This document shows, in pieces, positions 1,825 to 35,177 of a stretch of DNA of 64,000 nucleotides (its first letter is position 1; every line of letters starts with the position of its first letter). The stretch is from Botryllus schlosseri. Lineage: Eukaryota. Location: positions 1,302,001-1,366,000 of the forward strand of contig CM119372.1 in assembly GCA_051294905.1 (NCBI GenBank), given 5' to 3'. Below the pieces are notes generated by a model, which ran no database searches, had not been told where the DNA came from, and was given only the letters and a program-made list of their open reading frames with translations. The position numbers were made by a program, and so were the translations under genes.

Positions 1825-3463
1825 AAACGAGAATAGCAACTGGAAGTGTTTGGAACTTGTGTAAATTACGACGAAGCTACGACTGCCTTATTACCTATAC
1901 ACTGAAATCTTTGATTGTCTTTTGCAACACACGGTTAGTAGTGATTGAGACGCTGGTGTTGTACGTTATGAGATCTGAAATAATGTATTAAAATGGGAAT
2001 GTACATTTTCCATTATATTATCGGAGACACGCTCTAGTCGTTCGCTATAGGTTTGCGAGATGTTTGAAAGATTGCTTCTGTCAATGATTTTTCCGCTTCC
2101 AACTAGTGTGTGAGATATATATATATATATATAAATACATAGAAAGAGAGTTCATTAGGTACTAAGTTAGGGATACCATATTTTTATGTCTAAGAAGGAG
2201 GAAACTTTTTACATCTGACATTAACATACAATGCAACTGGAGAATTTTACGGAAATGGGAGATAGGATTGATCGAAAAAAGCCTGTAAACTGGTTTCCGC
2301 TTTACGTTGATCTGTCATTTATTCCAACTTCGCGTCAATTGTGTAGAAAGTCAGTTTTCACGCACCTTTGCTGTCGATGTTATCATTTTAGATATCTCTA
2401 TGTCATCACCTAACACCCACTGTAATAAAAAAGGATGAATTGCCAGAAAAGAGGATAATTGGGCGTCCTCCGAGGACATTTGGGTTTTCTCGAAAAAAGA
2501 CGACATATGGTATCCCTAATTAGGCACAAAAATATTCGCATAATAAACATACCTGGACAACAATACAGGCTAAGCGACGAAGGTTTATTGCCCAATCATA
2601 TTGGCACAACAGAACTCCATATGCATATTGGCATGATTGAATCACAGCAATGTGTTGGCTATTCAGGACCAGTTATGCAGAAGACGCAGGTCGCAACTGG
2701 AATAGTGGAAGTACATTATAAAGTCGATGAACCTCGGAAACCATGAAGTATCTCTTGGTCGGTATATGGTCATTTATAATCAAGTAAATATGTTGGCAGA
2801 GACAGTATTCCGTAACTGAGTTAGTAATACCACAGATGCCATTTCCTGGGTATTTCTTGTAAAGGTATCTCGTGTTGTTGGCGGCTTCGTATTGAACTAC
2901 GGGAAAACGTGGTGTCTATTACATAGTTCCTTGTAGAAAGGGAATTATAGTAAAATAATCTGAAAAAACATCATATACAACTTAGCTGAAATGCGAATTA
3001 CGAAAGAGGCGATTTCGTGGTTAGTTTTAAATGTGCAGATTTACTCACGGACATGCGTATTTCTGAAATGATTACATATCGATTCGATGATGTGTAAAGT
3101 AATTTTTTGTGTCATGTTGCGGTTGCTGTCAAAACGCTTCTTCATTTTATTCTCAGCAAATATGAATTTTAGCGCGCTGATGACGACATCTATCGGCTTG
3201 ACGGGTATGTTTTCCATTTGTATAAAATGTGCAGTGGGCATATAGGACTCGAAAAGATAAAAATTGAGTTTCAAAAGTTCGTTTATCGAGGGGAAATTAC
3301 TTCACTAATAGTGTTGCGTCACTAATTCATTGTGATTTAATGGACAAGGATGGAGTCACAATATACATTATAAAATTATGGGAGCGGCAAAATCGTATAC
3401 TAAAATGAGTTCGGTGAGAGTCTTTCAACAGGACACAGAACCGAGTAACTTTGTTTGTCTCAG

Positions 3464-6400
3464 TTTCGGGAAATTTGCTGATTGCTTCGAATTCGACCGA
3501 ATCCACAGAATCCGGTTCGGTTAACGGAACGGGAATCACGAACATAACGACATCAGCGACTTCAACGAACTACTACGGCACAATCAACTCTTCACTGACG
3601 AATGAAAGTAATTACATATTTGACCTGTACAAACTTCCAATCCAGTTAATTATTGCCGGTCAACTTACTCCTAGTAGTTCTAGTTCTAGTTCTAGATCTA
3701 GATAAATAATTTAGTTATACTGCAATTGAAAAACACGTATCGCCGTTTGGCGTGAACCGTGACACCGGTGTTCTGTTTTGTGATGTTCTTGCAGCCATCG
3801 CTTGCTCAGAGTCATCACTACTAGCTGTATAGCAAGGGGTGGGTTTTGGGGCTCGAATCCCCTCCCGTTTCAAACTCGTAACCCTGTCCGCTTGAAATGC
3901 CGATTCTATTTCTGATATTTATTTACAATATCTTTACAATTCAGTAACTCGTCTTATCAGTTATTAATCGGTTGTGTTTTAGTTGGTTAATTGAGTAATT
4001 TTAAAAGTCGTTCTAGTTCTAGTTCTAGTTCAAAATCCGGTAGTTTGAACAGGTCCGAGTATTATTATTATATTCTTTATTCACAATAAAACTGGTAAAT
4101 ACACACATAATCCGGGAAGCAACCTGCCCCCAAAGGAAAATGGCGAGATTGGAGTAAATTTTTAAAATTTCAGTAATCCATTCAAATTGTTATTCCTATG
4201 CAATACATGGAAAAGTCAGATTACAGAATTGCAGCAGATGAAGAATTGGCAAGGGCTGCAGAGCAGAGGTAGAGAGCATTGAAAATGAAGTATCGAAATT
4301 ACAGAAATTATGCAGTGATTTACAAGTGTAATTTTAGTCCAGTGGTGCATTCAAGGCCTTCCGAAGAATGTGCACAGTGCCCAATAATGTGATCTTTTGG
4401 ATCATGTCGAATCAAACGTTACCCGGAATTTGTTGGATATGTCTCATGAGTTTTTTGCTTACGACACCTGTGGCGCCAATGACTATCGGTACAATTATTA
4501 TTATTATTCTTTGTTCACAGTATTATTATGTAGAAATCATTTAGCGGTGTTTTTTGCATCAACGGATTTTTGCGCCACTGCAATTGATATAAAGTAACCA
4601 ACACGATTCAATAAGGTTTCCGGAGATCTTTTTTACGTGACTGCGTCTTGTGTCAATTTCAATACATCGGCGATAATCTTGGCGTCACATAAAACAGGCT
4701 ATAAATACAGAGTAAGGCACACACGGAAATAATGATAGGCCCTAATTACTAGTCCTATACAAATAACAGTCAAACTATACACCAAGGTAAATACACGCAC
4801 AGACAACACCCGTGTCGTATAAAACCGAGTACTATTTCTCACATTCGCAGATGGGACTACACTGTCATATGCGCATTCAACAGTCGCTGCAACTACGTGG
4901 GACAACAGTAGCGACCAATCGTCCATTTCGACAACACCGTCAGGTGCATTCACGACTTCAGAGCTCACGTCTTTAACTGCAGACAAAAGTAGTTCAACCC
5001 AAACCACTGGGGTTTGGACGTCGTCGCCAGGTAGCAGCACCACAACAACCGACGGTGAGTGGTTTCCTTTTGCTTAAGTATTTTAAAATTACTGATGTCA
5101 GGATAACGTAAGATTCATTCGATACATTTAGCCGTTTTTCGGAGATGATAACCTCCGAAATTGCAAAGTGCATCTTCGCGATCAACGTTAAAATACCGAT
5201 GACACTACAAATCAGGGTTGTAATGACTCGAGTCATGAGTCGACTCGAGTCGCGATTTTTTGGTGACTCGACTTGACTCGAGTCATATTCTTGAAAACGA
5301 AAAATGGCTCGACACGAGTCAATTTGTGTATTGACTTGACTTGTGCTCGAGTCATTTCGCATGACTCGGACCAAGTCATATGACGCGAGACTGGGTCTAC
5401 CAAGTCAAACATCTCATTGTAATTTCGAAAAATAATTATCACACTATTATTATTTCGTCTATTAGTACTGGTACTTGAAAATGCTACCAGAAACTGATAA
5501 AAATTAGTATATTATGAATGCGGAGCATTCGATATCACCGAGCAGAGTTGTAAAAAGTGGATTTCACATGACATTAATTGGAAACTGAACATGCAACACA
5601 ATGACTTGGACTCGGACTCGAGTCAAAACACTATGACTCGGGCCCGACACTCTACTCCGTGACTCGGACTCGGAGTCGACTCGGTGGTTAATTAAAAGTT
5701 ACTCGACTTGACCCGAGTCAAAACTTTAAAAGTGAGATTGACTTGTGACTCGGAACCTTGTGACTTGGTTACAACCCTGCTACAAATACGGATGGTTTCA
5801 AAAGCACTCAAAGTATCAGCATGTAGAAAATTCGCATACTTTTAGCAGTTACTCGGAGGAGGCGGCATCTTCGCAACTAAGGCAAAATAATAAACGAAAC
5901 TTCAGATATGTGCAATTTTCGAAATAAAGTCATTTACCCTAAGCAGCTGTGATTATTTTCACCCCTCTTAAAATTAATGAAAACATTCCGCAAAACTACA
6001 TTACACTTTGCGAAATATAAAGCGCAAAAATTCAATAATTTTACCTTCGAAACTGTTAACTGAAGAGGTTGAAGTCTATAATTGTAACCACTTGAGCGAG
6101 TGGGCGAGTGCAAGTACGCAAAACATTCAAGCACTCTTTGTTCCTGGCAACCTTTGACTAATAGTAGGCTACGAGACCTCTATTACGAATGATGTTGTAT
6201 GATTTATTCCAGAGTCTTCGAACGATACTCCCGAATGTGCGGATCCGACTATGAGCAGCTACTTGCCTCTGTTAATCACCAACACCGTGTTGCTGATTAT
6301 TCTCATCCTGGTCGGAGTTTTCAACATGGTTTTACTCGTTAAGAAGAGGTGAGACTCGGAGAAGTTTCATTTAGGATTGGAAGTATAGACGACATATACG

Positions 6401-7503
6401 GACGCACTACGAAGGACATTTTTGATAATTTGAGGATGTGAATGATCTTGATTCACAGGTGGGCACTGGTCGCCAGCAGTGCTCAAAATAGTAATCATTG
6501 CTACTCAAGTAGAAGCAGAAGTAGTAGTGATTCCCGAGTAGAACAGTAACTATTCTAGGATAAGGTTTACCTAAAAAGACGAAATCTGTCAATTAGAAGT
6601 GAGGGTAGTCTAAAATCATGCTGACTTGAGTAAGTACTTCTAACAATCCACTTGAATATTCCTGAAATAAACCCACTCACTGACCACCTCTGGGCATTAC
6701 GTATTTTGTGACATAAAACCAATATGTTCAGCCGATATCAATCATATTTCTTATCTCTGTTACAAATTAGCAAAATAGAAAATAGACGTTGACTACCTGA
6801 GGCGGTCAAAGCAGTCATAGTTGATACTGAAGTAGAAGTAGAATTGACGTTTTAATTTCTATTCAAGTACAAGTAGAAGTACAGCGTTTCCGAAGTAAGT
6901 GGAATAGTACGAAGTCGTGACGTATTGTTGTGTAAAAAACTATCGTATACGTGGAACCCATCCCCCTCTCTCTCTCTCTCTCTCTCTCTCCCTAACTCTA
7001 ACCCTATTCAAGTAGAATTAAAGTCGGAGATTTCTACACAAGTGCAAAGACAAGTAGTGTTTTCCAAGTACGTAAAAAGTATTCTAAGACCGGTTATGAC
7101 TAATAAACTGAAAACTGTTTAGTAGAAGTAGAAGTAATCTGATAAACACAACCATCTGAGGTTGTAGAGCAAGTACGCAAAGCCTACGTAAGTGCTCAGA
7201 AAAAAATAGAAGTTCTTCGTTACTGACCATAGCTATGCTGAATATTCATTATAGGTATATATAGTTGAATGTAGGTTGTTTTCATCTTTATCTTTATCAT
7301 GATTTGTCTTCAGAAGCGTTGAAGGAAATATTGAATCACAGTACGCACCGGACACACTGGACGAGCCTCGATATGTTAGTCCAATAGCCAACGTCTCCAA
7401 CGCAATGACAATGTCCTCTTTCGCTGGTATGAAAAGTACCGACGAGGAAAGATCACAGGACGAATGGTCTAATTCCGAGTACGCGGCAATCCGAGGAATC
7501 TGA
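3464..7503 (+). CDS. Receptor A: mucin-like single-pass type I membrane protein with C-terminal ITIM-like motif (5' exons not found)
   Basis: Frame-compatible GT-AG exons 3464-3607, 4851-5054 (S/T-rich), 6213-6348 (TM: YLPLLITNTVLLIILILVGVFNMVLLVKKR), 7314-7503 (tail ending ...SNSEYAAIRGI*). Confidence 0.8.
3621..4056. mobile_element. MITE-like element with (TTCTAG)n tracts; second copy at 31480-31958
   Basis: Inverted ends GACCTGTACAAACT / AGTTTGAACAGGTC; internal sequence aligns by eye with the 31480 copy. Confidence 0.6.
5213..5779. mobile_element. hAT-type MITE rich in GACTCGAGTC motifs
   Basis: TIR CAGGGTTGTAA...TTACAACCCTG; perfect 8-bp TSD CTACAAAT (5205-5212, 5780-5787). Confidence 0.9.
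6479..7230. repeat. Abundant TACTCAAGTAGAAGTAG-rich dispersed repeat, probably a non-autonomous hAT/Tol2-like family (other copies about 12850-13310, 18018-18233, 22454-22660, 33850-34420, 40320-40795)
   Basis: Copies start GTG(G/A/C/T)TCAAA and several end TACTGACCA(C/T); variable number of internal repeat units. Confidence 0.6.
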
Positions 7504-8312
7504 AATGAGATATTCATAATATGTCAATTCCGCTTTTCTTAGGAGATTCTCTCACTACATGGGACAATTTTGTCACTGAGATTTTGAAGGGTTGCTTGTA
7601 GAAGCGTTAAAGAATTATGAAGAAAAGCAATATTTAGAATTTAGAATGGAATATGACTTTAATTCCGCGAGCTCGAATGTATCAGTTGCTTTTGACCTTT
7701 GCAGACCGGACCCTGCAAGCATTCTGCGAACCCTAGAACCCGTGGTCCATACATTGCTACAGAATACAGGTGCGCCAAATGAACTGTGCATCAAAAACAG
7801 TAATAAAAGAGAAAGACTATTAAACTGGAATTTTCACACAAAACAACAAGATGATCATGAATAATTGCTACAATTCGATGTGATTTCCGCTGTATGATGA
7901 GTCGAGCGTGCGTCTTGACCTCCAACAAACTCTTTGGGTTTGTGTGGACCTCTGTTAAAAACCATTGGATAATTTTTCGTTTCGCTGATATTTCTTTTGC
8001 ATATATGGATCATTATGATTTCATGTTCTGAGCAGAAAAGTGTTTCGTTGTTTTAACAATAAGTCGAACTTAACTGGCGTGTTGACGCATAAGTAGACCT
8101 TTTCGGTTCTCAACATTCTTGTCTGGTGAATGCGCCATTTATGTTGCAGAGTAGTTCCAGGTGTGCATGACTCTATAATTCTGTTTCCATCATTCCAGAA
8201 TACCAGTCTTTGCCGGAGCACACATTTTCATCGTTTGCGCTTTCTATATGTTGTCTTCTGTTACTTTCAATTTCAATTCAGTGTACACGTCTCTTATTCA
8301 CATCTTCTAGAC

Positions 8313-8654
8313 CAGTGGCTCCCAACCTTTTTCGACTCATCGCCGCATTATCAAGCTCGATATATATTTATCACCCTTATACGTTTCCGAGAAAGAGAAA
8401 ATATGAAGGGGATATTTATACAGCCCACCCTGTTCTCTTGTATACTGACTAAAACAGGTCAATTTTCGCGGCGATCCCTGACAGTCCCGGGAATGCCGAG
8501 GATAGTTTGTGGCGAAGTTCCAGAATAACCTGTATTTTGTGCCCGCGGATCCGGTTGCTGGATTAGATTAATTAAATATACATTTCGCCCCTCAATCGCC
8601 CTCCTTGTAATTTTCGCCCCCTATTCTCAAAATCGCCCATGTTGGGAACCACTG
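8313..8654. mobile_element. hAT (Charlie-like) MITE
   Basis: TIR CAGTGGCTCCCAAC...GTTGGGAACCACTG; degenerate 8-bp TSD. Confidence 0.75.
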
Positions 8655-8776
8655 TTCGAGGAGAAGGTGGGTGTTTGATTGTTACTTCAAGTCGTTTCAA
8701 CACCCTCATATATTTTCATCGTATCGCAATCTTGTGGGGCTTTAAAATGGACTGAATGTTGCCTTTCGTTTCACAG

Positions 8777-11700
8777 TGTTCGATAATGTAGTGGCACTTA
8801 TGACACGATACTTCTTAGTAAAAACCATATACCTTCTGTCGTTATTGAATAACCGTAATCCGATGAAATTCTCAACAGGTAAGCAGCTCTCGGTATAAGT
8901 TACATTCATATCAAATCATTTATACACACGAGAAGGGAAAATAAATCAATTTAAAACAAACATGTTAAAACAAGGCCGCTCTTCAAAACTTGTTTTATAT
9001 TTTTTAAAGCCATGACGTCACGAATATTCAGTTGTGACGTCATGTTGGATTGATAGTGACAATTGAAAATACAGGGTTAATATAGCTTTCTTGGCTGTTG
9101 AACCGACTATTTTAAAGGTCAACTGCATCTTCATAGACAACTTTGCGGAATCATGTTCAGAATTTTTTTTCATACCGAAATGGCCGACTTTCCGTATTTC
9201 AAACTAATCGGAAATTGCCGTAATTTGGACCGAAAGTCCCAATATTGGTATGTTTACAGAAAAAGCGGAATGTTCATTGTGACGTCATGTAGTTGACATC
9301 TCTTCTGGCCGCTGCAGATGTATGCTATAGGGTTGGCGGTCTTGCAGTAGGAGGGCGCTTATTTTAGTTAGTTATGGCGGAGGTTTCGCTTGTAATGGAT
9401 TCACCAGGCGAGTCCGAGTACTCAGATGTCGAATGTAAGTATGCTTTTTCCTCTCACTTACGAAAGTAATGTTGAAACGAGGACACGTTTCAAGTGTTGA
9501 TGTGCTCGATCCCATATCAGTAGAACTTCTTGCTGCTCCGAAAACGAGGGGTCGTTTGAGTATGATTATTGATGACTAACCTAAGGATGTTAGTGATATA
9601 TAGTATGATCAGCCTAGCGTGTTCAGCTTAAGCCGCTTGTCTAGACCAAATGAAATACACCGGTATGTGTAATTTGGTGGAGAACCTCCTTCCAGTTATT
9701 AATCTTGCATGGTATTATCAATTACAGTTGAGAGGATGGAGGTTGCCAACTTATGCAAACTATCAGGGGAGAGTGCTGCAAACAGGTCCCTCGAGCAACG
9801 AATGAATTATTAGTGCATCACAGCATTATCAGGATTTCAATCAAGAGTATGTATTGGAGATTGTCTCGCTATAGATATCAACAGGAATATTGTCATATAA
9901 TTATAACATCCAGTTTGATGCATGAGCGAATGAGTCTCATTCACATGAAATGTTGAGTCGGGTGCCAAATAATTACCCGTCAGTAACACAACAATTACGC
10001 TTTTCAGGAAGCTGAGAAAAACCGTACACGGAAATTTTGTTTGCTGGCCACTGGGATTCTGCAACAAAAGCCAACGAAAAATCCTGTCTGCGCATCCGAT
10101 CAAATCCAGTACTTTCAAAGGATTTCAATTTTACAATGCTTCGTGAAGGAATAGTTGTATTGAAAATAATAAATGCAACATAACCAATCCATCAACAGTA
10201 CTACTGTGTCAGGGAGAGAAATATAGAGTTTTGTGTCCAGCAATAGCTTCCTTCAACTAATTTTGACGATGCCGTTTGTCGAATGAGGATGAATCATCAC
10301 AATAGACTTGGTCGACTCGGCCGTTTCTGGTCTTGCTTTAATGAATGCGTCAACTTCATCATTGCAGGAATCTAGAGCAGGAGTAAAATATCACTGAGTT
10401 TTATAACAAAGTCGAATAGAAGGCAGTAGGCCTATACCAAATGCTGTTCGGAAGTATCAAAAAAATGAAGGATTGCCAACTGCATCCTACCTAACTTTAC
10501 GACTATTATGATGATAGTGATAAGTTTTCATCTTTTACTGAGAGGTCAATATTGATAGGTTCAGTCACAGATATCTGACACTCCTCATTCAATAACTAAA
10601 GTAACTAATATGATTACATGACCGCACATGTACCGTACACAAAAAGAAGTGTATTTTCAAAAGTAATAGCAACTCTTCCATTAATAGGAGGTCAGCGATA
10701 TATAACCATTATACATCATGAAGTCAGCAGGTTATGAACTCCCTTTATAGTAACTAATGCATTTATAGATCTTTTTTTCTTAATTGATTTTCAAGTGTTT
10801 TTATTTCAGACTACGTACACTCCTACTTACAAGTTTTTCAAGGCATACATATTTCAGTTATTTGCACATGCACGTGAGTGTAAACAATAATGGGCCATTC
10901 CCAACCAGGACAACAAAAGTTGGAACCACCACATTCCCAAATCTTCTGAAATTTGGTACATGCATAGATGAGTTAATTTCGAACACAATAAAGTTTATTT
11001 GAGGGAAATTGATCTCCGGGGTCAAAAGTTATGTCATTTTTAAAAATTGACGATTTTCTGCTCATTTCAGCTCTGCAGCCTTCGGGTTTATCAATGTAAA
11101 ATTCAAAAAGGTGTAAACAGATGTTGGATTACAGTTGAGATTTGGCACTGGGTTTTCTGAGTAACTAGTATATTGGTCTATATTCCCATGTGGTATTGAA
11201 TGCCATGCGGTGTAGTGTTAAAGGTTAAATTGAGGCGAAACTTGGTCGATGGTCTGAAATCGGTCAAGCGTTACACAATTTAGAATGCGAATTGAGCAAA
11301 ACCTTATAAGTATATTCAAGCGAGTAGGGTATCATATGAAAGCTGGTTACAAAGACAATTTTCCATAGCTTTTTCATTTTGGTTTTTTGACTGTAAGGTG
11401 GGGAAATCGCCATCTCAAGAGTACACTGCATTTGTCCATGGATATGCTTAAGTTTGGAATATGGTAAACCGATGGTTCCCATACTTTTTTGACTCAACAC
11501 ACCTTGTTAAGCTCAACTTATATTCATCACTACCCCTGAAGACTATATGTCAATAATACTTCGATGACTACCATACCACAGTCAATACTACTATAAGCGG
11601 TTAGTTACACTCTTACAAAACTATAGCTGACACAGTACATTTTCACTTACCGATTTCGGACACTTTGTTTAGCTTTAGAAGTGCGTTCCTCTGACATTAC

Positions 11701-13927
11701 CACAATTTCACTGGTGCGTGGAAATAAAGTATGAACGGCACTACTGCAGTACGTCGGCAAGAGTTGCCCGTGTTCAGTAGTCAGTTTTCTTGCGTGTTGC
11801 GTATCTCGGATACTTCATTGAAGCAAGATACTTGTTAGTGATTCGCATTTGAAAATGACTCTGCCTTTGGTTGTCTATAAGTCCGCACTTTTGGTCTTAA
11901 TGGCGTCCGGTCGCCTGTCGGTATATGGATGGGTTTTGGCAGCGATGTCAATGCATTGTAGGTACGGCATATTGCGTATTGGACCAACCATACGCGACAT
12001 AACATCTGACTCTATGAATTTTCTCCTTCACAGCTTTCATGATCCCACTCAAAGACCCAAATCCACAGCAAATCTAAGCAATAATCCCACCTAACAGCCA
12101 ACAGAAATAACAAGGACTTTTGTTGTGTCAACTACTTGACGTCATTTCACGGCTGGGTGATTTCGTTTCCGTTTTCCGGAATTTCGATTTGTAATTCAAA
12201 TTACTTGAAAACTATCTGGTAATTTCAATTTTCATTATTTTATTCATATTCCTAACCACATAATGTACGAAATAAGGTGAAGTCATTTTGAAGATGCAGT
12301 TGACCTTTAAGGTTTCCAACCATCGGCTATTCATCGGCTTTGTCGGGAGGTAATCGATCGTAAGCTATTACCATAGCCTTTACCATAGCCTTTACGAAGG
12401 CGCCTTTGCCGCAATGGCTCATTCCGCTATCCGCTTCCATTCTAGTTCTGATTGTTGTTGGGGTTATCTTGATTATTTTGCTCGTGAAATTAAGGTGAGA
12501 ACTCCGGCAATTGTCATTTTACGAGGCGCGTCCACTTTTTCGGAGCACTGAAGTAAGTTTTTGTTATACTCGCACTACTTTATCAAGTGCATGGTGATGG
12601 TTTTAGAACTGTTCCGCGTCGACTTAAACATTTTTAGGTAAAATATTGTTTTTACTGTGGAATTTGTAAAGTAATTATGGGAGAAATTTGCCTCGCTTTT
12701 ATGAAAGAAATTGTCAGACGAACCGCATGAATCAACTCTGTACCAGAATAACTGAATACATTTTCTAAGATTGTACCAATTGCTACTGTCATTCGCCATT
12801 TTGAGTTAGTTTAGTAGCGACGCTGACTACGTTGAACACTTCCTTAGAAGTGATCAAAGTATTCTTCGTTGGTACTCAAGTAGAAGTAGAAGTAACGCTA
12901 TAGATCTCTACTCAAGTACAAGTAGAAGCACCGATTTCTGAGTAAGAAGAAAAGTAATTATTCTAACCCTAGTATTGTCTAAAAAAAATAAAACGGAGAA
13001 GTAGAAGAGTCTAATATCGTAACCGCTCGAGGAAGTGGTGCAAGCAAGTTAAAACCTGTACTTGATTATTTTGAAACTGTAGAAATACTTCGTTAGAGAA
13101 GTAGCTCCGAAGATTTCTACTCAATTACAAGAAGAAGTAGCGATTTTTAAGTAAGTAATTTAGCCCTAATGTTGCCTAAAAATTGAAAACCATTACCTAG
13201 CGTGTAGATGTAATCTGAAATCGTAATAAGTCAAGTCAGTACCGCTAGTATAGTCCAAATAACCTACTTGAGCACTATGTAAAAGTAAAACTACTCTGCT
13301 ACTGACCACCCTTGCATATCAAAAACCCCATAACATCAATATATGGTCTGAAATTGCCATAACAGAACGGACAGCAAGGCAGTGACTAAAAGATCTGTTG
13401 CCGAATCAAACCGCTACGATACGCGTGGTACGACTGAACAGAACATCGCTGATGTTGCGAATGATGAATCACTTGAAAACAGAATATCACGCGATCAAAA
13501 ATCGCGAGTTTCGCAGGGTACAGCCTCTGAAGACACGTACGACCATCTTTACATGTCAAAAACCCCTTCAAAGCCGCGCATTTTCAATGGTGAAGAAAAG
13601 AGGACTCGCAACACTTCTCGCGGGAAACCTGATGACACCGTTAAAGACAACACCGCAAGGATAGACCGTCTCGCAGAATTCTCAATTGACTTATCTAGCG
13701 CTGTTCACAATCGATACAAGAGACACAGCGAACCGTCCGTAACTGCGGCCTATTCCGGCACATCACGACTTGGAGTTAACATTGATAGTCTGGGGGACAT
13801 TCCTGAATCAGGCGAAAACGATAGATACCGCCGGCCTAGGATTAATTCCACGAACTCGAAGCATTTTATGGCGACACCGAACGATATACGCGGAGTTAAT
13901 ACGAAATACATCAATGTCGTTAATTAG
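8777..13927 (+). CDS. Receptor B: single-pass membrane protein with long Tyr-motif tail (ITSM-like C-terminus); ectodomain unresolved
   Basis: Candidate exon 8777-8878 (phase 1-1, weaker support); TM exon 12377/12389-12494 (PQWLIPLSASILVLIVVGVILIILLVKLR); tail exon 13366-13927 matching ORF 13382 with DTYDHL and TKYINV. Confidence 0.7.
9116..12306. mobile_element. Non-autonomous Kolobok-like DNA transposon (3.2 kb)
   Basis: Perfect 18-bp TIR AGGTCAACTGCATCTTCA (9116-9133 / 12289-12306) flanked by TTAA on both sides; no transposase ORF; probable nested element starting GGGCCATTCC near 10892. Confidence 0.8.
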
Positions 13928-15528
13928 CATCTGAGTGTTTCGATTCCGAATCGAGTAGGCTATATTAGACTTTAAATCGAATCGAGTGCCATTCGCATAT
14001 GACGTTATGACACTATGGAAGATGTAGACCACAATGAATATAATGCTATATAGTTCTACATCGCGTTCAAGATAATTCTGGTTTTCTGCATATTTTCGAC
14101 CATGCCTATTTCATAGAACTTTGTGACAACGATGTGGGTTGATCACGACTGGACGGAAATTTCATTTCCGCTAGAGTGCGCAGCATTGTATACTACATCT
14201 TTCGCATGCTGCGATACGACGATATGAGGATATGCGATATCATTTCAATACTCAAAAGAATCATATCTTGCTGCTCGACCCGAATCATTGGACTTATACT
14301 ATATTCAGATTCGAACACTCTAATCATTGTACCCAGTCCCTGCTCACGATTATGCAGAAAGCTAATTTCGGGTATGTCGAGCCGGATTCGAACAAATTCA
14401 ATGTTGGGTGACTCTGATCGAAATGTGTCCCAATCCACTGTTCCTTTACATTTTACGTCTCAAAAATCTTAACTATGCATGTGTAACGCCCACTATGATC
14501 AAGCATACAATACACATTTATATATGCGACAAAAACGATCGCTTCTTTTACGCGAACAGTTAAATACGTATCGAAGTATATCTTTACAAGTTTTTGCCAA
14601 TTATTTAGTCATACTGAGTCATACGCAGTCATACTGATGTTGTAAACGTTATCGCTGTTAAGATTTCGGGTTTCGTTTATTTATCATTCTGATATTTAAT
14701 GGTTTTTGTGTGAAGAGTGAAGCCATCCGTACCACGAGTGTTTTCTGTATCGACACTATAATCATCGTTTTTAAAGTGACGACTACCAAATGATGTCTGA
14801 AATTTCGAACAAATAAAACATCCTAGCGATTATCAGAGGTAACGAAGTGTCGATATGGCTTGATATTTGGTAACTGGGTAGCCCGGGTGTAGGCCTAAGC
14901 ATGGATGCCCTCGGAAAAACTAGCCAAAACCGACTTTCAATTGTCCTGCAACCAATACCAGTTCTTGCTTATACTGTAGCGTTTCGCGAGACACGAAGGC
15001 TGTACAATGTCTACATCTTCGGACGTTTTATGCGGACGTAACTCCCTCGTTTTTTTAATGACGAAAGAACAAGACCTTATTTTTGACAATTAGTATTTAT
15101 TAGCGGCAGATGGTCGCATAAACGTGTCAACTCGATCGCGGTTGAAAACGAAAGCTTTCGTTCCAAAACGCGAGAAAGATATGATTTGTTTGTGTTGGGG
15201 AATCGGGAAGATGAGACCTGTCGCCACGTAGCGCGACTGCACTTCAGTTCGAGGTGAGACCTGTAGAGCGATAGAGTATCAGTTTATTGATAATTTTATC
15301 ATCCTAAAACACCACAAGACTGAGATACAATGAAAAGATAGGAAGGTGTCGAAACGACTTGGAGTAGTCTTTATAATGAGATAAGTTGCACTAAAGGCTT
15401 AATGATCATAACTATACTACAGAACTTCGTTTGTGAAGATTTCAAATGGGGCTCTTTAGTCAACGAGATATCAGATTTTTAACTTGATCCACTCTACGGC
15501 TGAATCTCGATTAAGCACGGGGTGTGAG

Positions 15529-15846
15529 CAATGTTCCCTCTAAGCCGCGCGCAAGAAATTATCACTGTATCTTTCGCAGAAGGCACAATGATCATCCGAG
15601 CAAACTGACGACCATTTTCGACTCACAAATGTGGAAATTATTTCCTAAAATGCGATGAAACCGGCAGTACTCCGACGTAGCGAACGTCAAAGTTTCGGAA
15701 AAATCGTGGAATGTTGGAGTCTAGTCAAAAAAATTGCCTTTTATATTTTTCAGTCAACACAAATGTCCTCTGTTTCGCATCTAGCAGGGACCGTGCAGTG
15801 AGTTCGTGAGTGCGTGCAGACTCGTGAAAAATTAGAGGGAACATTG
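15529..15846. mobile_element. hAT-type MITE
   Basis: TIR CAATGTTCCCTCTAA...TTAGAGGGAACATTG; 8-bp TSD GGTGTGAG/GGTGTAAG. Confidence 0.85.
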
Positions 15847-17129
15847 GGTGTAAGCCCTGCACACTGAAAATTGTGAATATCGGGGTGAAGGCTAGAGTTC
15901 TTTGTCAGGCCGACATCGACACCAAGATAATTCTATTGTTAGAGATGATTAAATAATTAGACTAATTGGAGAGAAATACCGGTAATCTAATTTGAATCTA
16001 ATATGTGAAATGTATCTGTTCTCTAGTTTTATTTCTAATCTAATTCTCCTAAAATGCTACGGAAGAACTGTAAAGTGCGAAACGAGCCGAGCTTAGCGTA
16101 AAGAGATTAAACATTCTCATGCTTACGAGAAAATACTACGACTTGATATGAACTGGGCTTGATTATCGTGGTATTTCTTTCTAACGAGGAATTGAATTCA
16201 ATATCCAAATATTTGCGAATTCAGTCATTCTAATTATTATCTAATCTTAAAAAGAATTGTGTAGCTATCGTTGTATTTCTACTCAAATTTGGAAAAGTTG
16301 ACCATTTTCTAGTTGCCAAATCAGCCATCAAGTGACCTATATACTCTTTGACGCGAACTAAATTCTTTGTCGCATTTACTGGCAGGTTTATCGGGTTACG
16401 CGAAATTACATGATCATATATGTGTCCTGGCACGATGTCTCCTCTCCCGACAGCAGAAGCTACTGATATCTCCTCAACAGCGTGTATGTACATAGAACTC
16501 TAGTTGTATATTGTCATCTTTTTGACAACCAATGTCTATTAGGTCCACAGTGCAGAATCAAGTAGCGAGATAGTGGGCCATGGACTGATTAGTAGGGCAA
16601 GTTTTTCAAAAAACAACAACTTTTTGTACAGCTTCCGGCAGCTTCCTATATACTCAGACGTTATGTAGTATGGCGTTTTAAGCTGTTTGGTGGATTCTTA
16701 TATTGCAACTTTTTGCAATTTTTCGCCATTTTTTCATGCAACTTTTAGTAACTTTTTTGATTTTTCATGTAACTTTTTTCGATTTTTCATAGAAATGTTG
16801 CTTGATTGCTTGATTATTTCACTGTCATTTACATTTGAGGTCCTTTCTGATTTGACGTACATTCACGCTAGACTGCCGAAAATTTTATTTTCACTGGGTC
16901 AACACTGAGTTTCGCTACAGTGCCATGGATGCGGAACGATTCGAGTATCTCATGCCCTAATAATTTCAAGGAACTTTTCCACAAATGCAACTTTTTAGTG
17001 CAACTGTGTTAAAAATAAATGTAACTTTACACTGCAACTTTTGTGAAAAATAACTCAACTATCCACGGATTTGACTGCAACGAAAAAGTGCTCTACTGAT
17101 TAGTCATTACTGATTTCTCATGTACGCAG

Positions 17130-20100
17130 ATGAGACTACACTGTCGTATGCGCATTCAAGAGTCGCTACAACTGCGTGGTCGAACAGCAGCGACCAATCG
17201 CCCATTTCGACAACACCGTCAGCTACATCCACGCCCGAAAAGCTCACGACTCCGACTGCAGACGAACATAGTTCCGCCCCAATCGCTGAGATTTGGATGA
17301 ATGGTAGCAGCTCCACGGTAACAGGGGGTGAGTGGTTTGCTTTTGGATTGGTCTGGTAAAATCCCTGATGTCGATACAGGGTTTTAACTAAGTAAGTATC
17401 AGTGGCACAAGTCAATCTTACTTTTATAGTTTTGAATTAAGTCGAGTTATTTTTAATTCACCACCGAGTCAGGATCGAGTCCGAGTCAGTGAGCAACGGG
17501 TCGAGTCCGATTCATACCGTTGAGACGCTAGTCCTAGTTCAAGTCGCACTGTTTATTATAGTTCAAGTCATGTTCAGTTCATTTTCACAACTATGATCTG
17601 GTGAAACGAATCCGTCGCATTAATATTATACCCATTTGTCTCATTCTCAATAAAATATGGTCAACAACGAAATACTTCTACTTGTTCTTGAGTGTGAATT
17701 CACGTCGTTATTTCTACTTGTATACTCGAGTACAAAGGAGGACTACATTGAGACAACCTCATCCTCTTGATGGGTTTATTCAAACAGATAAAATAATCGA
17801 TTTGACTCGATGGATATATGACTTGGTCAAGTCATGCGCAATCACTTGAGTACGCGTTGAGACAAAACGCAAATTGACTCAAGTCGAGTCGAGTCATTTT
17901 CAAAATTGAAAAAATGACTCGAATCAAGTCGAGTCAATAAAAATATGCGGCACGTGTCGGACTAAATTCGAGTCGTGACTCGAGTCATTACAACCCTACA
18001 ACAACTGCAATACAGATGTGTTCAAAGTAGTCCCCGTCGGTACTCAAGTGGAAGTAGAAGTAACAGTTTGCAAGTAAATAAAAAAGTAATTGGTCTAGAC
18101 CTATATTTTGCCTGATGAAACTGTCAAGTAGAAATAGAAGTAGTCTAAAACACAATCACTTGATTAAAAGGGGCAAGTAGTCAAAGCCTACTTGAGTACT
18201 CCCCAAAAGTAGAAATGCTTCATTACTGACCACATATGCTACGACACTACAGTGATTGTTTGTATGTAGAATCGAGAGTTTGATGATATATATATATGTA
18301 TATATATATTCATATTCATAGACTCAGACAAGTATTACTAAGCATCCGTACTGAAAATCACCAGGGTATCGTTCTATTCTTTTCTTAGCGACGTCTACGC
18401 ACGAAGCCAGCGGCTCATCAGCTTCAGAATATCTCGACGCATCCCTGGCGACCAGTCCGACCACTACTGTGACGACAGAAAGGCCAAATATCGCCTTGAT
18501 TGCGAGCGGCGCGATGGCGGTCTTCCTGCTGACTGCATTCATCATGACGCTCATCATTCTATTCAAAACAAGGTTTAGCTATAATTCTAATTCTAATCTA
18601 ATTCGGTAAAGCTGAAAAGTTTCTAGTTCTTCTGCAAAATATTCAGGAAACCAGATATTAGATTGGAATTAAAATTACAGCATAAAAATAGTTCGCATTA
18701 TTTCGTCTAATTATACAACTAGAGTTATCTAGCTGTACAACCCAGACTTGAATCAGAGTTTAAGAAAGTTTTCACCCACACAGAGCAGAATTGGCGAAGA
18801 GGAGCGAACAATCCTTATCAAACGAAGAACAGTCAGACAATGACTCAAGTCATGACACTGCTTACGACGTGGTCCAAGGCTCCAATAAACCAGAAGACAA
18901 GGACACGTACGACACGATGGGACAGTGGCGTGGTGGCAAAGCGGACGATGGCGACAATCACTTCGATGTTACGCCACGAAAAATAGCTTCTACTGAGTCA
19001 GAGCATGAAACATCTCGGCCCTCGCATTTAAAGTCAAGCGAATTGGTGTCCTGCTCTGCGGACAAACAAGGTAAAGATTAGAGCTTGGCCGATAACTTGA
19101 CTTAACTAGCACCATCACCGACAACCCTGATATTCAGAATTCGTGGCATGTAGGTTAGAGCGCATTTCCAAAACTCCATTACGTTTATTTCGACAGCTTC
19201 ACAACCATTGCTATTCTTGGACATGTAATACACTAGCAATGATTCGTATTGATACATGTGAGATATTATAAATATATTAATATTTTCATCACCCCGTCAT
19301 CAGGGCAATTGGTATCATTTATAGGCCTATTTTAACTAAGAATAGGCACAATGATTCGAGTACTCGAATCTGAATATAGTATTAATTTTAATTATTCGAG
19401 TCGAGTAGTAAAGTACGATTTTTTCGAGTACTGAAATTATACGCTCCTCACCACTGAAAGTTAAATCATCAACGAGAATTGCAGTTTCGATGCTAATTTT
19501 CCATGTTGAAGCCTTGAAACCTTGATTGGCTGTATCGTAATATAAGAAACATATAGTAGGGGAGACCGGGGACAAATGTAACACTGGGCAAATGTAACAA
19601 TCGACCTCGCCGCTAGTAGGATAAAGAAATCGCCTGCATATTTTGAGTGCACATGCGGTAGTTATGTCTTCTAATATACCTGAAATTACGTTGAGCTACG
19701 ACGCGAAATCCCGGAATAATTTCAAAAAAAACGAAATTTTGTACCCTTGAGTAAATATTTTCTGATCTGGAATAATTTGTTCTGAAGAATACAACCTCAA
19801 GTGGTTACAATGCAATGTATGTAGCTAGAACAATGTTACCATAGTCTACCGTGATGATAGATAAACTAGGACTTGCGTCGCCGTGAAGGCACCATCCTGA
19901 TACACTAATCATGGTCGAGCGTGTCAGGGGCAATTGTAACACTCTGTTACTTTTGCCCCGTTACAATATCTTTTCAATGCTGAATATCTGTGTTTATATG
20001 TTGGTATAACCATTTATCTACTGCAGATGAATCTTGCCTCAGCCAGAAGTTCAATACCAGAACAGACACTACCTGGAAATGCCTATTCAAACATGATCCT

Positions 20101-22428
20101 CTGTCGGAACGGCCATACAGAAGTGGTGGTGAATCTTAGGGTCCGGTTATTTCCGTGATTCTACTACCCTATCTCATGTTGATCGACTTTTGGCTTGTCG
20201 ACCTTCAATGGTCATTGGTCACTTAAGAACTTGCCCATGACTGAATCCTCTTACCCTGACTTTGAGCACGGCCCACTTACATTTTGTCATTTGATGTGAA
20301 CAATTTATTTTAATTTTGTACGGAACAGAAGAATACCATTAGCTTTGATGCCACACAATGTTGTGCCCTCGTTTTGCTACAGTATCAGCGGTCCATTCAA
20401 CAAAGATATTTTGGCCAGCTCGGTTTCGCACCTTCGCAGATGACCGAATGCCTAACCCATCATGCACGCTGAACTACAGCACCTAGGTAGAAGAGGTCGA
20501 ATATGTGTAGGGAGATGGTGGAACGAATGTGTTTCTTGTACACTTTGAGCTCATGCAGAACGAACGAAGGGTGATAATTTATTCAGATGCCAAAAATGCG
20601 ATGGGGCGTAGCCTGAAAACGTTCAAACTTCTCTTTTTTAGTTTAATTCGATAGTATAGCCTACAATTTGTGCTCCCGTTATTGTTGTTCATTTCGTTTG
20701 TTTTTAGTTATAAATAACACTGTTACAATGGTCCCGCATGGGCGTTACAATTGCTCCGGGGTACGGGGAGATGGTAACATTTGAGCGACGATTTTCGCGA
20801 CCAAAAATGTCTATGATTGAATATTGATTGAGTTCCATTTTAGTTTTTATATCAACTATTGAGGTGTTGGCTTCTTTATATAAAAGTTTGGAAATGAAAT
20901 ATCCACGAGAAAAACACGTAATGTTGGAAAATCCAAAAAAGTGTTACAATTGTCCCCGGTCTCCCCTACAAAGCTACGAACGTTACTGGAAATAGCACAT
21001 TTCCAAAGCCATGATAATCCGACAACATTGTCACCAAGTGCAATGAAATCTGTATGGTCAAAAAATACCAATGTATCTTTTATGTGACGGAGGCATTTTG
21101 TTCTATGTTGAGGCATAAAAGTTACATATTTGAACTTTGACATAGTACTTTTTGTTGTGACGCCATAATGAGCGATACTTTAATACTCGACTCGACTCGA
21201 AGCATAATACGAGATTCCGAATTCAATCACTCAGGTACTCGATTTTGCCCAGCCCTAATTGTAACCGATGAGGGGCCACTATAATAAGACAAAATACAGA
21301 CTTAAGTCAGTAATAAGGATATATGATACACGAGCGATGAAGTTTTATTGTTTCGGTTTAAACATTGGCCTAGTCCGCGGTTCCCATGAGATACATGGAC
21401 CTCAGGTCAAGTATCTCTGTTCTAGGTTTAATGGGAGTCTGATTGAGGGCGGCAGAGATCATAATGTTAGCTTATCCGGGAGAATGCAAACCGTCTGATC
21501 AAACACTGTTAACCGTGGTAATCTAATTCGCTTGATTAATTGTTCCCCCAGAGGACTGGGGATAAACCTCGCGCGAAATCTACTCCAACTTTATTTGCTA
21601 TAATTAACGGCTTTAATCAGAAAATCAGTATTCTTCCGGATAAGATAATTCTATGAAGTCCGACCAAAAAGGCTATACTTCAAGTCGTTTCAACACCCGC
21701 ACATCTATTCCTGATATCGCGATATCATGGCGTTTCGATCTGATGAAGATTCCAATACAATGACTGACTAACATTTTACTTTGGCCATCTCTTCAGACTA
21801 CCGCGATCTTTCGCATCCTGAGCGCCACGCCAGCGCTTACGAAGAGGTCAACGACGTACTGGAAGTGTCCAAGTGCGATAAAGGGGTTCGTGTATCTTAC
21901 CGCGTGCCTCAGAGAAAGAGCGAGCCTTGCTGGCCTGCGGCGGGCTGTCACAAACCCCACCGCCTGTCAGACTTGATCCCGTACCAGCACGGAGAACATC
22001 AAACGACAGCCTTCACGAGATTATCGGACGCTATGTCGACTCAAGCATTACAAAATGGGCAAAGTAACAGCGACAAAACTTTTCGCTTGAGTACAACACG
22101 CGAAGATGTTTCACAGGCTACCAACATCGCGAAAGCACTCAAGAAGATCTCAGACGCTAATCCTAACTTGGCAACCTTGTCAGCTCCGGAACAACCCCGG
22201 ATTTCGCATCTAAAACAGGAAAAGCCAGATACAGAGACGACAGCGGACGGCGTCTACAATCACTTGAACGAAGCGGAAAATATTCCTAGGCGGCGTTTCG
22301 AGGGCGCTGTGTTCTGTCTGCCTGAGATACCGGGCGAGTTCGGAAGCGACCAAAAACGGAAGCAGTCTCTGACCAGGTTTCAGATGCCTGGTAATCAAGA
22401 AGGAGAGTATTCTCGCTTGCAATCTTGA
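17130..22428 (+). CDS. Receptor C: mucin-like single-pass type I membrane protein with multi-tyrosine tail; paralog of receptor A (5' exons not found)
   Basis: Exons 17130-17327 (clear paralog of 4851-5054), 18389-18572 (TM IALIASGAMAVFLLTAFIMTLIILFKTR), 18784-19070, 21797-22428; phases all compatible; motifs TAYDVV, DTYDTM, DYRDL, SAYEEV, GVYNHL, GEYSRL. Confidence 0.82.
17377..17998. mobile_element. GACTCGAGTC hAT-MITE family copy, opposite orientation to the 5213 copy
   Basis: CAGGGTTTTAA...CTCGAGTCATTACAACCCT ends; internal similarity to 5213-5779. Confidence 0.75.
19559..20966 (-). mobile_element. Tc1/mariner-superfamily (pogo/Fot1-like) DNA transposon, internally deleted
   Basis: About 26-bp TIR GGGGAGACCGGGGACAAATGTAACAC / GTGTTACAATTGTCCCCGGTCTCCCC with TA on both flanks; only decayed coding remnants inside. 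Confidence 0.8.
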
Positions 22429-22954
22429 GAGGAACAATATACTATCGCACAAATGTGGTCAAAGTAATCATCGTTGGTGCTCAAGTAGGAGTAGAAGTAA
22501 TTTAAGGAATTTCGACTCGCTTACAGCCTGTACACGACCTACTTATGTAGGCCTGGTTGATGACTCAAAATACAGCAACTGCTGCAGATACTTTATTAAA
22601 GCGACCAGCCGCTATACTAGGCTTAGTAGTGCCTGAAAAATTGAAAACTGTTAAGTAAGAATCAGACAGAGGTATATATAGTCACAGTAGTGATCGTTGG
22701 GACTATGTCAGAAGTGGCAGTGACGTCATGATTTTCTACTGAACCATAAGTACAAGAAGCGATTTCCTATTGCGAATAGGTAGACTTCGAGATCATAATG
22801 TTTTTTTTGTCGAATGTTCCCATGATCCCATGAAAACGGCTTATAGGCCCCTAGGTTGTAAAACCCTGCTATGCATTAATATTAAAACTATTTTTAGTGG
22901 TAAAATTACGATAGTCACGAATTTGTCATAGATTCTGTGCACCAAGTGTACAAT

Positions 22955-26200: not shown

Positions 26201-27778
26201 CCAGAGCAGGGGTTTTTGAACTTTTGTTTTATCGCGGACCCCTTCAAGTTTTGTGGGCGGTTGCGCGTACCCCCCAGAATTGCAGAAAAAAGTTCTTCGC
26301 TTTGTGGTGTTATCTGGGCTAAAGATATACTTGATGATTAAATGAAAAAGGTCATCACCTCAGGTTAAAGTCTACTCTGTCTATTCCATGCCGATAATAA
26401 GCTAACTAATGACTATAGACAAGGTGGTTCTTTATTAAATTATAGGCTTATTTTATCAGTGGCTCTTGTGCAGCCCATTCCTTGCTCAAATATGACGAAT
26501 CACGTGAACTGAAACGTTAGAGCTGTAGTCGGTTACCTGTATACGCATGAATTCGATTATCACTGGAGAAATGAGTAGCTTCCAAATATAATCTACGTAT
26601 CATCAGTACACAGAGTTTAACAGAGCGATAATGACCAGTATATATAACAGTAGGCCTACGTAGATATTTGGTATGACTTAGAAGCTATGCCATCGCTATT
26701 AAAGAGATCTAAGCAGAGATCGGAATTATTTTGATGCATCAAATTATTTTACAGCTGATAATGATACTTCCCCCGGTATGCTGATACATTTATTACCTAA
26801 AATATATTATATATATTCCTAACAAGATAGCTTCGCCTCATGCCTGCGCCATGTTACGAATGTCATTCTGCGTTATCATTTCGTTGGCAATGAAGGTGTT
26901 GAATTGTTCTGTGGGTAAAGAGGTAAGTGTATAGCCCCTTATTAGCGCAGCGCGTAGCTCTATTGTAAAGATGGCAAATGTGTCAGCTATTGATATAAGA
27001 AACGGTACAAAAATCAAGCCGCACCGCGATTGCGTACGAATTGTCGCGCTCTCCATGAATTATTGATGGGGTGACAATTGGTTTCTAGCCCCGAAAACAG
27101 CGACGTAGTCGAATTTCGTATTGCAAACAACGCATGTCACACATTGGGGATTATCCTGGGAAAGTTACGTCATTAAAACAATGTTCTGATGCCATGTTTT
27201 CGATAGCGTTTGCTTTATTTAACTCGAGATTAATATTCTTTAATGTTCGCTTTTATGATCAAGTATAAAAACGAAGCCACAAATATAGATTATTCAATTT
27301 GAAACGACCGCCATAATATAGATAACTAACCCACAGATACATACCTAACACATGAGTATATGGTTGGGCAACCAGAGGCCGCTCGCAATTTCTGGTAGCT
27401 TCGTACACTGTTATGGTAATCAATCAATAATCGCCAGATTATATTTTCATCTGATCAAGACACACACAATATACAATACGACAAGACCCAATGCGATGTA
27501 ATGAACAGTTGCAGTCTCTCAAACTGGCATCCTACTCGGCCTTGTCCAATGTCACAGTTCTTTTGCGATGTTTTTATCTATTCCGCGGCTCGTTCTTGCT
27601 CTTTCCATTCATTGTGAGTACGTTCTTTTATCGGGTGTTTTTCTGGGCCTTTTTTCACCGTAAGAACAGCGACGCAGGGGGAGACGAACCGAGATAAATC
27701 TCCCGACACGGAATCGAAACTGAGTCGTCACCATTACACACTAACTCATCCGACAATGGTAATGTTATAGCTTACGAT

Positions 27779-28109
27779 CGGGTTGCATTTAAAACAAACG
27801 GTATCTTAAAACACTTAGTTTAAAACATGTTTTAAACAAATGCCTTTTTGAAAAGAAAAAAAATTGTGCGATGTAGTCCTGGTTAAAGATATTTTTGGTC
27901 AGTTTATGCCAGTGATCGGAAGCCCTTTTCGTCAAAGGAGCCATATTCACCCTACATTTTCAACTGTCAATGGCAAACCACTTTGACGTCACTATTAAAT
28001 ATTCGTGATGTCATGGCTGAAAAAAAACAATGAAAAAACATATTTTAAACACGGGCCTTGTTTTGAACGTGTTTGTATTAATTTGATTTTTGTTTTAAAT
28101 GCAACCCTA
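27779..28109. mobile_element. hAT-type MITE
   Basis: TIR GGGTTGCATTTAAAAC...GTTTTAAATGCAACCC; 8-bp TSD CTTACGAT/CTTACGAC. Confidence 0.8.
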
Positions 28110-29149
28110 CTTACGACCCTTAGTTTTGAACGAAAGCTGCTGTCGCGCTGATTCCGCAAATATACATTAAAATCTTGTCAGGTCACTGCAACAACCTCAA
28201 AGTTGTCCTTAAAAGTCGAAAATAGGTATTGTTCTGAACAATCAATCGGGGCGCCGCAAGACAATTACCATAGCAACGACCTATCGCGGAGCTGTGATTG
28301 GTTGCAACAATACCGATTTGTAACATCATGTGGTCGCCCATCCGATTTGGATTTAAAGAAAGGATTTGGTGATTGATTTTGACCAGATTTTGAATGGGAT
28401 ACGCATTCACACTCAAAGAGCAGAAAAGGGTGGTACAAAAAAACAGAGCTTAACTTAGAATTATTTCGCGGTAATCAATCCTACGGTAGTCTGTGCAGTG
28501 TGCATGCACAATTTGGATTAAAATGTTGTACTCGATTCGTGTACCACAGGTGTATATTCACACCCGTATATTAGGGGTGGTAAGCGGGTGAAAATACACA
28601 GCTTTTCGCTGAGAGTGCGGATTTGCAATCATTTTGAAGCGGGATTCGCTCTATCTGTTTGATGAACCGTACAATAACGAGCTACGCATCTATCCGTAGT
28701 TTAGTTATCTATGGTCAGAGACATCGTAACTGCTCCTGCACCGATTTGTAAGAATTAGCGATTTAAAAAAGCGGAAAGCCTACACTTACACCTCCGAATC
28801 TGCGACATAACTGAAATGTTCTGATATCTTCCAGACACTATCCACGATAGATGTTAAAATTCCACACACGCGACTTGACCGGGACCGGTCCCAAAACGAC
28901 GAACCGATGGCCGCTTCAGAGTTTGACGCACAAACCGCCCGAAAATCGAGAATATCAAAACCTCGTCGGGGACGCAGGTATACTGCGATACGTTTTATAG
29001 GCAGTTGAAGTTTAAATGTTTGACACAAAGGCTCAATTACAATTTCATGACTGTCATGCTGGACTAAACGCAATGATTTGAGTACACCCGAATCTGAATC
29101 GAGCATAAATAGTAGGAGATGATTTTTTTTTCAAATACTGAAATTAAAC

Positions 29150-29350
29150 GGGTGTCGAGATAGCGTCGTGGTATAATCCACAGCTGCAACACCAATGGGT
29201 TGCGGGTTCGAGGCCAGCTGAGGGCGATTCCAGAATTCCTACCTAAGGGTTGGAGGTTTATCTAGGCTCCTCCTCGCCAAGTGATCCGCGCCCAGCTCAA
29301 CTATTTTGTTGACTGACTGATCCGCCTTACTGGTATGACCAGAGGCGGTC
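29150..29350 (+). mobile_element. tRNA-derived SINE (related body in reverse orientation at about 32026-32340)
   Basis: A-box TAGCGTCGTGG and B-box GGTTCGAGGCC followed by a non-tRNA body; TGGAGGTTTATCT shared with the reverse copy. Confidence 0.7.
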
Positions 29351-34993: not shown

Positions 34994-35177
34994 TTTCCAA
35001 GTAAGTAGAAAAGTGAGCATTCTTATCCATAGTTTTATAAAAATATTAAAAAAAACTGGGAGAAGTGGAAGTCGTATATAATAACATGACCGCTGGAGTA
35101 AACAGTTGGCAACACTACTTCAGTACTCCAAAAAGGCATAAATACTTCGTTACTGACCGACACTTCACTGTGTAGCA

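Follow-up and report, generated by a model that had tools for sequence, protein, structure and literature searches.

What kind of protein is encoded by a run of exons that join a single membrane helix to a tail set with tyrosine motifs and that carry no recognizable folded domain? The question is raised by a tandem cluster of three modules, A, B and C, in the genome of the sea squirt Botryllus schlosseri (assembly GCA_051294905.1, contig CM119372.1, positions 1,302,001 to 1,366,000), a 64-kb stretch called here the window, whose numbering is used throughout. The window is intron-rich, animal-type DNA of ~39% GC, and all three modules lie on its + strand. An initial annotation had described them as a family of mucin-stalk receptors whose tails carry the inhibitory (ITIM) and switch (ITSM) types of immunoreceptor tyrosine-based motif. 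We find that the exons and motifs of A, B and C are real and that, judging from their sequences, they form a genuine cluster of genes for single-pass proteins with tyrosine tails, apparently not described before and with a mosaic exon history. As to what these genes encode, our reading, held with only a little more confidence than doubt, is that A, B and C are lineage-specific single-pass phosphotyrosine scaffolds or co-receptors, intact or recently intact.

Gene A comprises a probable first coding exon (3157-3204), a Ser/Thr/Asn-rich ectodomain exon without a Pfam match (3464-3607, phase 1-1), a Ser/Thr-rich stalk exon (4851-5054, phase 1-1), a transmembrane (TM) exon (6213-6348, phase 1-2) and a tail exon with the stop codon (7314-7503), and its joined frame is open over 240 codons. 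Module B consists of a TM exon (12389-12494, phase 1-2) and a 186-codon tail exon with the stop (13366-13927), open over 222 codons when joined, and gene C of a Ser/Thr-rich stalk exon (17130-17327, phase 1-1), a stalk-plus-TM exon (18389-18572, phase 1-2), a first tail exon (18784-19070, phase 2-1) and a last tail exon with the stop (21797-22428), open over 433 codons. Every exon joint uses AG/GT sites, no joined frame has an internal stop, and across the 11 exons (~2.7 kb) there is neither a stop nor a frameshift. All three TM exons are entered in phase 1 and left in phase 2 inside a K-x-R codon; the phases, this codon and the open frames verify the common exon architecture that had been proposed for the three TM-plus-tail modules. 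Each protein has one hydrophobic helix and no second (KD19 of 3.02 in A, 3.28 in B and 2.56 in C), with basic residues on the C-side of the helix. A scan of 128 kb of strand for the same arrangement (an exon entered in phase 1 that holds a helix and ends in K-x-R at a phase-2 donor) returned three matches, all on the + strand and identical with these TM exons; there were none on the - strand and none in any of 40 simulated 20-kb sequences, a rarity that is overstated because the criteria had been tailored to these exons. The exons have a GC content of 0.49 against 0.38 outside them, and of the 5164 frames that run from stop to stop in the interval 1.8-48 kb, the two longest contain the last exons of C (218 codons) and B (191 codons). 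The donor of C's TM exon is weak, at the 62nd percentile among GT sites. The stretch had been taken to begin at 3464; its exons hold, but gene A begins upstream, probably in the exon 3157-3204, which has an ATG at 3162, a phase-1 exit, the top-scoring acceptor among the candidate exons listed and a good donor. The frame remains open for 29 further codons upstream of this ATG, and a longer, signal-peptide-like start of gene A is possible.

The tails are distinguished by their tyrosine motifs. A's tail ends in SEYAAI (7474-7491), a broad ITIM. B's carries DTYDHL (13532-13549), which is hemITAM-like by two of three criteria (half an ITAM, the immunoreceptor tyrosine-based motif for activation), and the terminal TKYINV (13901-13918), which has the ITSM pattern and also supplies the only YxN, a Grb2-type site, in the three tails. 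C has TAYDVV (18857-18874, ITSM pattern) and DTYDTM (18902-18919) in its first tail exon, and YRDL (21799-21810), SAYEEV (21832-21849, a broad ITIM), GVYNHL (22249-22266) and the terminal GEYSRL (22402-22419) in its last. The four motifs named initially (SEYAAI, TKYINV, TAYDVV and SAYEEV) are all located where expected, and the scored motifs number one in A, two in B and six, within 308 residues, in C. Although these statistics are partly post hoc, the region having been picked for its motifs, YxxL/I/V occurs at 8 of 18 tail tyrosines against 2.37 expected (20000 tail shuffles, p 0.001), ITIM or ITSM patterns occur four times against 0.7 expected (p 0.005), and an acidic residue stands just before YxxL/I/V/M six times against 0.82 expected (p 0.0005). 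In all three tails the terminal motif lies 6-7 residues from the C-terminus, an arrangement seen in 0 of 20000 shuffles. The proposal that the cluster evolves fast, and that its single-pass proteins carry tyrosine motifs that are not there by chance, is supported.

The assignment of the tails to the ITIM/ITSM type holds in part. The broad ITIM (S/I/V/LxYxxI/V/L, the consensus in PMC7242328) occurs once each in A and C and not in B, and the ITSM pattern (TxYxxV/I, taken from the initial annotation) once each in B and C. By the strict definitions in PMC12582321 and PMC7242328, the three tails contain no strict ITIM, no strict hemITAM, no paired core-2 and no strict ITAM (YxxL/I x6-12 YxxL/I). 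Two relaxed ITAM-like pairs, with V or M allowed, are present in C, TAYDVV with DTYDTM and YRDL with SAYEEV; each includes one motif that had been named initially, and given six motifs their spacing has a p of 0.14. The tails are thus a mix of two broad ITIMs, two ITSM patterns, a hemITAM-like site, two relaxed ITAM-like pairs and a YxN, not mainly inhibitory, and with mixed motifs and no strict ITIM they cannot be called inhibitory from sequence.

The same motifs can be read in another way. A terminal YxxPhi is a common sorting signal, and all nine scored motifs fit YxxL/I/V/M/F. A, B and C might be sialomucin-like glycocalyx or adhesion-modulating proteins, their motifs being YxxPhi endocytosis and sorting signals and not kinase docking sites; the stalks are indeed Ser/Thr-rich and without a fold, and ITIM-like strings are present in many non-immunoreceptor membrane proteins (PMC7242328). 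We consider this unlikely, given that in six of the motifs an acidic residue immediately precedes the tyrosine, in the manner of kinase sites, that the number of motifs in C exceeds sorting needs, and that B lacks a stalk and no acidic dileucine signal was found in the tails.

Conservation of the motifs could be followed in one relative. The queries were single exons: the last exon of C and the tail exon of B were searched in protein collections, and the exons of A in Pfam, its stalk exon also in metagenome contigs. Against 1.84 billion representatives, C's last exon gave a single match, P0001 (133 aa, E 7e-41), an unnamed singleton from a 970-nt contig that is 62% identical. P0001 keeps both of the tyrosine motifs that it spans, in invariant blocks of 11 and 7 residues, with 8/8 Y..Y+3 positions conserved on a background of 63% (p 0.026 if positions are independent, p 0.06 when blocks are taken into account), and its terminal motif matches the broad ITIM. 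To that extent, conservation of the tyrosine motifs in a relative is supported. The best-conserved part of the tail is a tyrosine-free invariant block at residues 163-177 of C's last exon (22285-22329), basic then hydrophobic and containing one Cys. In run X1 the stretch 22004-22540 is present in another version, which differs at 29 of 537 nt without a gap and is either an allele or a paralog; we treat X1 as DNA and not as expression because it covers introns with 0-3 differences, and it is maybe not independent of the assembly.

Other searches returned nothing further. C's last exon had no match among 448 candidates of 367-2000 aa, a two-sequence profile of C and P0001 returned only P0001 among 996 candidates, and B's tail exon matched none of 24 candidates. 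Among PDB sequences there was nothing for the B tail at E up to 10 and one chance match for C's last exon, and of the 211 and 46 pattern matches in metagenome contigs none was confirmed. Leads from the ESM Atlas for C (best 0.82, in unrelated retrotransposon gag clusters) were rejected, and B had no usable match there. AlphaFold2 modeled C's last exon from the two-sequence alignment with a mean predicted local distance difference test score of 45.9, which is compatible with disorder and weak as an indication. No description of such proteins in ascidians was found in literature searches of partial coverage, made mostly outside subscription journals.

The exons of the cluster have different histories. 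The stalk exons of A and C agree in 76.7% of their DNA over 271 nt and in 38 of 65 residues, and the match reaches ~20 nt before the acceptor (14/20 nt, with only 12/40 over the next 40) and extends 48 nt past the donor (35/48), ending where a repeat starts in C. The two exons differ by a single indel, of 6 nt and in frame, and their divergence looks neutral (synonymous, dS, 0.22; nonsynonymous, dN, 0.28; dN/dS 1.25, p 0.70). The TM exons of A and C, by comparison, are unrelated (z 1.5; 17/48 nt, p 0.58), whereas those of A and B are related (z 9.7 against base shuffles; 29/48 nt, codon-shuffle p 0.001), the homology covering the 3' end of A's TM exon and continuing into the first intron bases past the donor consensus (p 0.036). 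Over 21 codons the A/B pair has a dS of about 1.7 and a dN/dS of 0.28 (Fisher p 0.048). The TM exons of B and C gave a z of -0.1 and a weak codon-shuffle p of 0.04, and no DNA homology was found among tail exons, 3' untranslated regions, upstream regions or candidate first exons. A strong A/B intron match was not counted, being a dispersed repeat that recurs elsewhere in the window. Since the A/B TM exons and the A/C stalk exons are each homologous, the cluster is a mosaic, in which A, on this sequence evidence, combines a membrane exon of B type and old origin with a stalk exon that it came to share with C recently. It had been proposed that A and C pair paralogous stalk exons with TM and tail exons that are unrelated, and this stands; in place of the accompanying picture of swapped tails, we prefer copying between A and C of a small patch centered on a single stalk exon, while the TM exon of A is related to that of B.

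The duplicated membrane exons also raise the possibility that A and B are one gene with alternative membrane-plus-tail cassettes on A's stalk, one ending in the short, terminal-ITIM-type tail and the other in B's long tail with its hemITAM-like and Grb2/ITSM sites. All stalk and TM exons are entered in phase 1, the TM exons of A and B are duplicates of each other, donor and next intron bases included, and no copy of the stalk exon was found upstream of B (z -0.7). There are two precedents: Alr1.3/1.4 and Alr6 of Hydractinia splice to alternative TM and tail exons (PMC9546547), and the Fester co-receptors FcoR3/4 of Botryllus swap ITIM and hemITAM via splicing (PMC12582321). Set against these are an AATAAA 300 nt 3' of A's stop, a strong phase-1 candidate exon just upstream of the transposon that precedes B, and the lack of a read over any such junction among the 15 joints listed of 179 in the RNA runs described below, and we regard a single A/B gene as doubtful.

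Outside the membrane the modules differ. The outer part is 154 residues long in A and 127 in C, with 44% and 39% Ser+Thr, 3% and 8% Pro and one Cys each; no tandem repeats were found inside the stalk exons. The outer rods of A and C are probably glycosylated. B has 15% Ser+Thr and an outer part of at most 40 residues if its guessed first exon holds, and the name mucin-stalk family suits A and C but not B. Pfam gave no match at the curated cut-off for any of the 10 exons of A, B and C searched (10/10), and no fitting Ig/Sushi-type exons were found in the window upstream of B or C. The first exons of B and C are speculative guesses. For B, the candidate 8777-8878 (+) has a phase-1 exit and the strongest donor listed but an intron-like GC of 0.35, and would be separated from the TM exon by an intron of 315 nt once the transposon is removed; for C, the candidate 16386-16483 (+) has a good acceptor, an exon-like GC of 0.47, a weak donor and no hydrophobic signal. 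Stretches with good splice sites at 15110-15254 and 7705-7769, in the gaps before C and B, are possibly untranslated exons or repeat debris.

Expression was sought in RNA and DNA reads on 2900-22899, for which 4 of 24 listed runs were mapped, including bulk RNA from X4 (6% read) and X8 (13% read). Spliced reads over the predicted junctions, which the initial annotation had proposed as a check, are absent from the joints listed for X4 and X8, and in both runs the bins composed mainly of exons and unique DNA have a depth of 0-0.5. The stretch holds no ordinary gene as a positive control, and among FcoR genes the repertoire varies between individuals (PMC12582321); the result counts against strong, broad expression. 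X11, with 1 read of 11 million mapped, is uninformative.

Together with the partly post hoc motif statistics, this is the first of several points that weigh against A, B and C being working scaffolds or co-receptors. No purifying selection is visible on the stalk exon, motif conservation comes from one relative at the block-aware p given above, and the longest invariant block between C and P0001, of 15 residues, has no tyrosine. No folded or ligand-binding domain was found for A, B or C, and only the analogy of its motifs connects the locus with immunity or allorecognition. The first exons are unproven, and with the proposed starts none of the three has a clear cleavable signal peptide, so that insertion would have to be by the membrane helix itself. 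Finally, a 3.2-kb transposon lies 78 nt before B's TM exon. The modules might accordingly be silent remnants, or only the 3' ends of larger receptors whose folded ligand-binding exons were lost or overlooked or, in the case of A, are situated upstream, past the retrotransposon with its end near 1822. The lack of expression in X4 and X8, the transposon adjoining B's TM exon, the retrotransposon 1.3 kb upstream of A, the neutral-looking stalk divergence and the unproven first exons would all suit such remnants, but the 11 exons are free of stops and frameshifts, the single indel between the stalk copies is in frame, and the gaps before B (~1.6 kb outside the transposon) and C (~3.2 kb) contain no convincing run of folded-domain exons. 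We judge this explanation improbable.

How do the modules compare with known systems? The Alr family of Hydractinia symbiolongicarpus, as described in PMC9546547, likewise consists of tandem single-pass genes with tails more divergent than their outer parts and with ITIM/ITAM motifs, but its proteins carry Ig domains of the V-set/I-set kind, Fn3-like domains and strict ITAMs, none of which are found in A, B or C, and homology with Alr is not to be expected. Within B. schlosseri itself, PMC12582321 describes the Fester co-receptors (FcoR) as single-pass proteins encoded in clusters that evolve fast; their tails have core-1 motifs (YxxI/L/V) and end in a tyrosine motif, their ectodomains and tails differ in ancestry, and FcoR3 resembles B in a hemITAM-like site with one acidic residue missing. 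The tails of A, B and C hold eight core-1 YxxI/L/V motifs, a pattern of low specificity. FcoR proteins have a signal sequence followed by an Ig-Sushi-Ig-Ig ectodomain (PMC12582321), whereas A, B and C have at most one Cys, 39-44% Ser+Thr in A and C and no Pfam match. Of six diagnostic motifs of A, B and C none was found exactly in the available FcoR supplement text, in which positive controls were found and line breaks or alleles could hide a match. As to a Fester-family partner, the neighbors observed are a G-alpha gene and an orphan gene of secreted type, no search with Fester sequences having been made, and the chromosome 9 FcoR cluster is described without Fester partners (PMC12582321). 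With no Ig/Sushi exons in the window, no strict motifs and 0/6 exact motifs in the published set, FcoR identity is rejected.

Vertebrate sialomucins and mucin-stalk proteins of the CD43, CD164 and glycophorin C type are unfolded Ser/Thr-rich rods on one TM helix, a form that A and C share. Unlike these proteins, A and C are low in Pro, have no tandem repeats and have tails rich in tyrosine motifs, and no sequence similarity was found. By analogy, the architecture, that of B especially, would work most like the transmembrane adaptor proteins (TRAPs: LAT, NTAL, LAX, PAG and GAPT), which in PMC3342071 also have a single TM helix, no folded ectodomain and several tyrosine motifs in the tail. If its guessed first exon is right, B would have a TRAP-like outer part; the Ser/Thr-rich outer parts of A and C are too long. 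Other differences are the YxN sites, of which the three tails have one in all where NTAL, LAX and GAPT have four or five, and the lack of a juxtamembrane Cys or CxxC in A, B and C (no Cys in the first 11 tail residues); as LAX shows, a palmitoylation site is no requirement (PMC3342071). No sequence similarity to TRAPs was found, and the comparison is functional only.

If A, B and C are scaffolds or co-receptors, the N-terminus would lie outside, with an extended Ser/Thr-rich rod of ~130-150 residues in A and C and probably almost no outer part in B, and the unfolded tail would be the working part. Src/Syk-type kinases would phosphorylate the acidic-YxxL/I/V sites, including the terminal site of all three tails, and the phosphosites could then recruit SH2 proteins, namely phosphatases, Syk-type kinases and Grb2-type adaptors. 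In this way A, B and C may tune the signals of other receptors, most plausibly in cell-contact or immune signaling; only analogy makes an immune or allorecognition role plausible. The cluster would have diversified by exon-scale copying, through an old duplication of the A/B membrane exon and a recent copying of the A/C stalk exon. According to PMC12582321, the Botryllus vasculature expresses homologs of Src, Syk, SHP-1, SHIP and Grb2, and nearly all proteins of the ITAM/ITIM pathways are present in Botryllus, while ascidians have no homolog of LAT or of SLP-76. It follows that scaffolds unrelated in sequence could fill this gap, which is testable. In its boldest form, which we rate as a long shot, the proposal is that ligand-less phosphotyrosine scaffolds evolved independently in sea squirts and fill the role of the missing LAT-class adaptors, and that A and B are possibly a single gene, its alternative membrane exons putting an inhibitory-type or an activating-type tail on one common outer rod. 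Should they prove to be expressed and phosphorylated, A, B and C would bring to an invertebrate signaling toolkit, probably a chordate one, a class of membrane proteins with tyrosine motifs that has not been described and that lacks Ig, lectin and Sushi domains. Such novelty is tempered by the tyrosine-tail receptor clusters already published for Botryllus and Hydractinia. The exon-scale mosaic evolution of the locus is of a kind that annotation by open reading frame length or homology misses.

The surroundings of the modules are rich in repeats. The transposon before B (9112-12310) is a multicopy DNA element, flanked by TTAA and bounded by terminal inverted repeats that match perfectly over 22 nt, which we take to be piggyBac-like by its target site. 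A minus-strand GT-AG intron within it (10372-11650) is bridged by 12 reads in X4 and 80 in X8, at multicopy depth. Copies of a high-copy miniature inverted-repeat element lie at 5213-5779, 17378-17997 and 34439-34996; the copies in A and C, each in the intron that follows the shared stalk exon, point in opposite directions, and an 8-nt direct repeat flanks the one in A. The retrotransposon upstream of A occupies 1-~1822 and appears by eye to be the 3' end of a Gypsy-like long terminal repeat (LTR) element, with RNase H/integrase-like frames, a purine tract and an LTR starting with TG at ~1636. Downstream of C, the orphan gene (~26850-32143, + strand) has a signal-peptide-like first exon, about six exons and a run of six cysteines before its stop, and the spliced gene for a heterotrimeric G-protein alpha subunit (~35713-41828, - strand) has one exon that matches PF00503 and Gi, Gt and Go chains about equally. 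The end of the window is taken up by a near-perfect inverted repeat (48058-64000, centered near 56028) with arms of ~7.9 kb and four mismatches outside the central 65 nt, which is either an assembly fold-back or a real palindrome.

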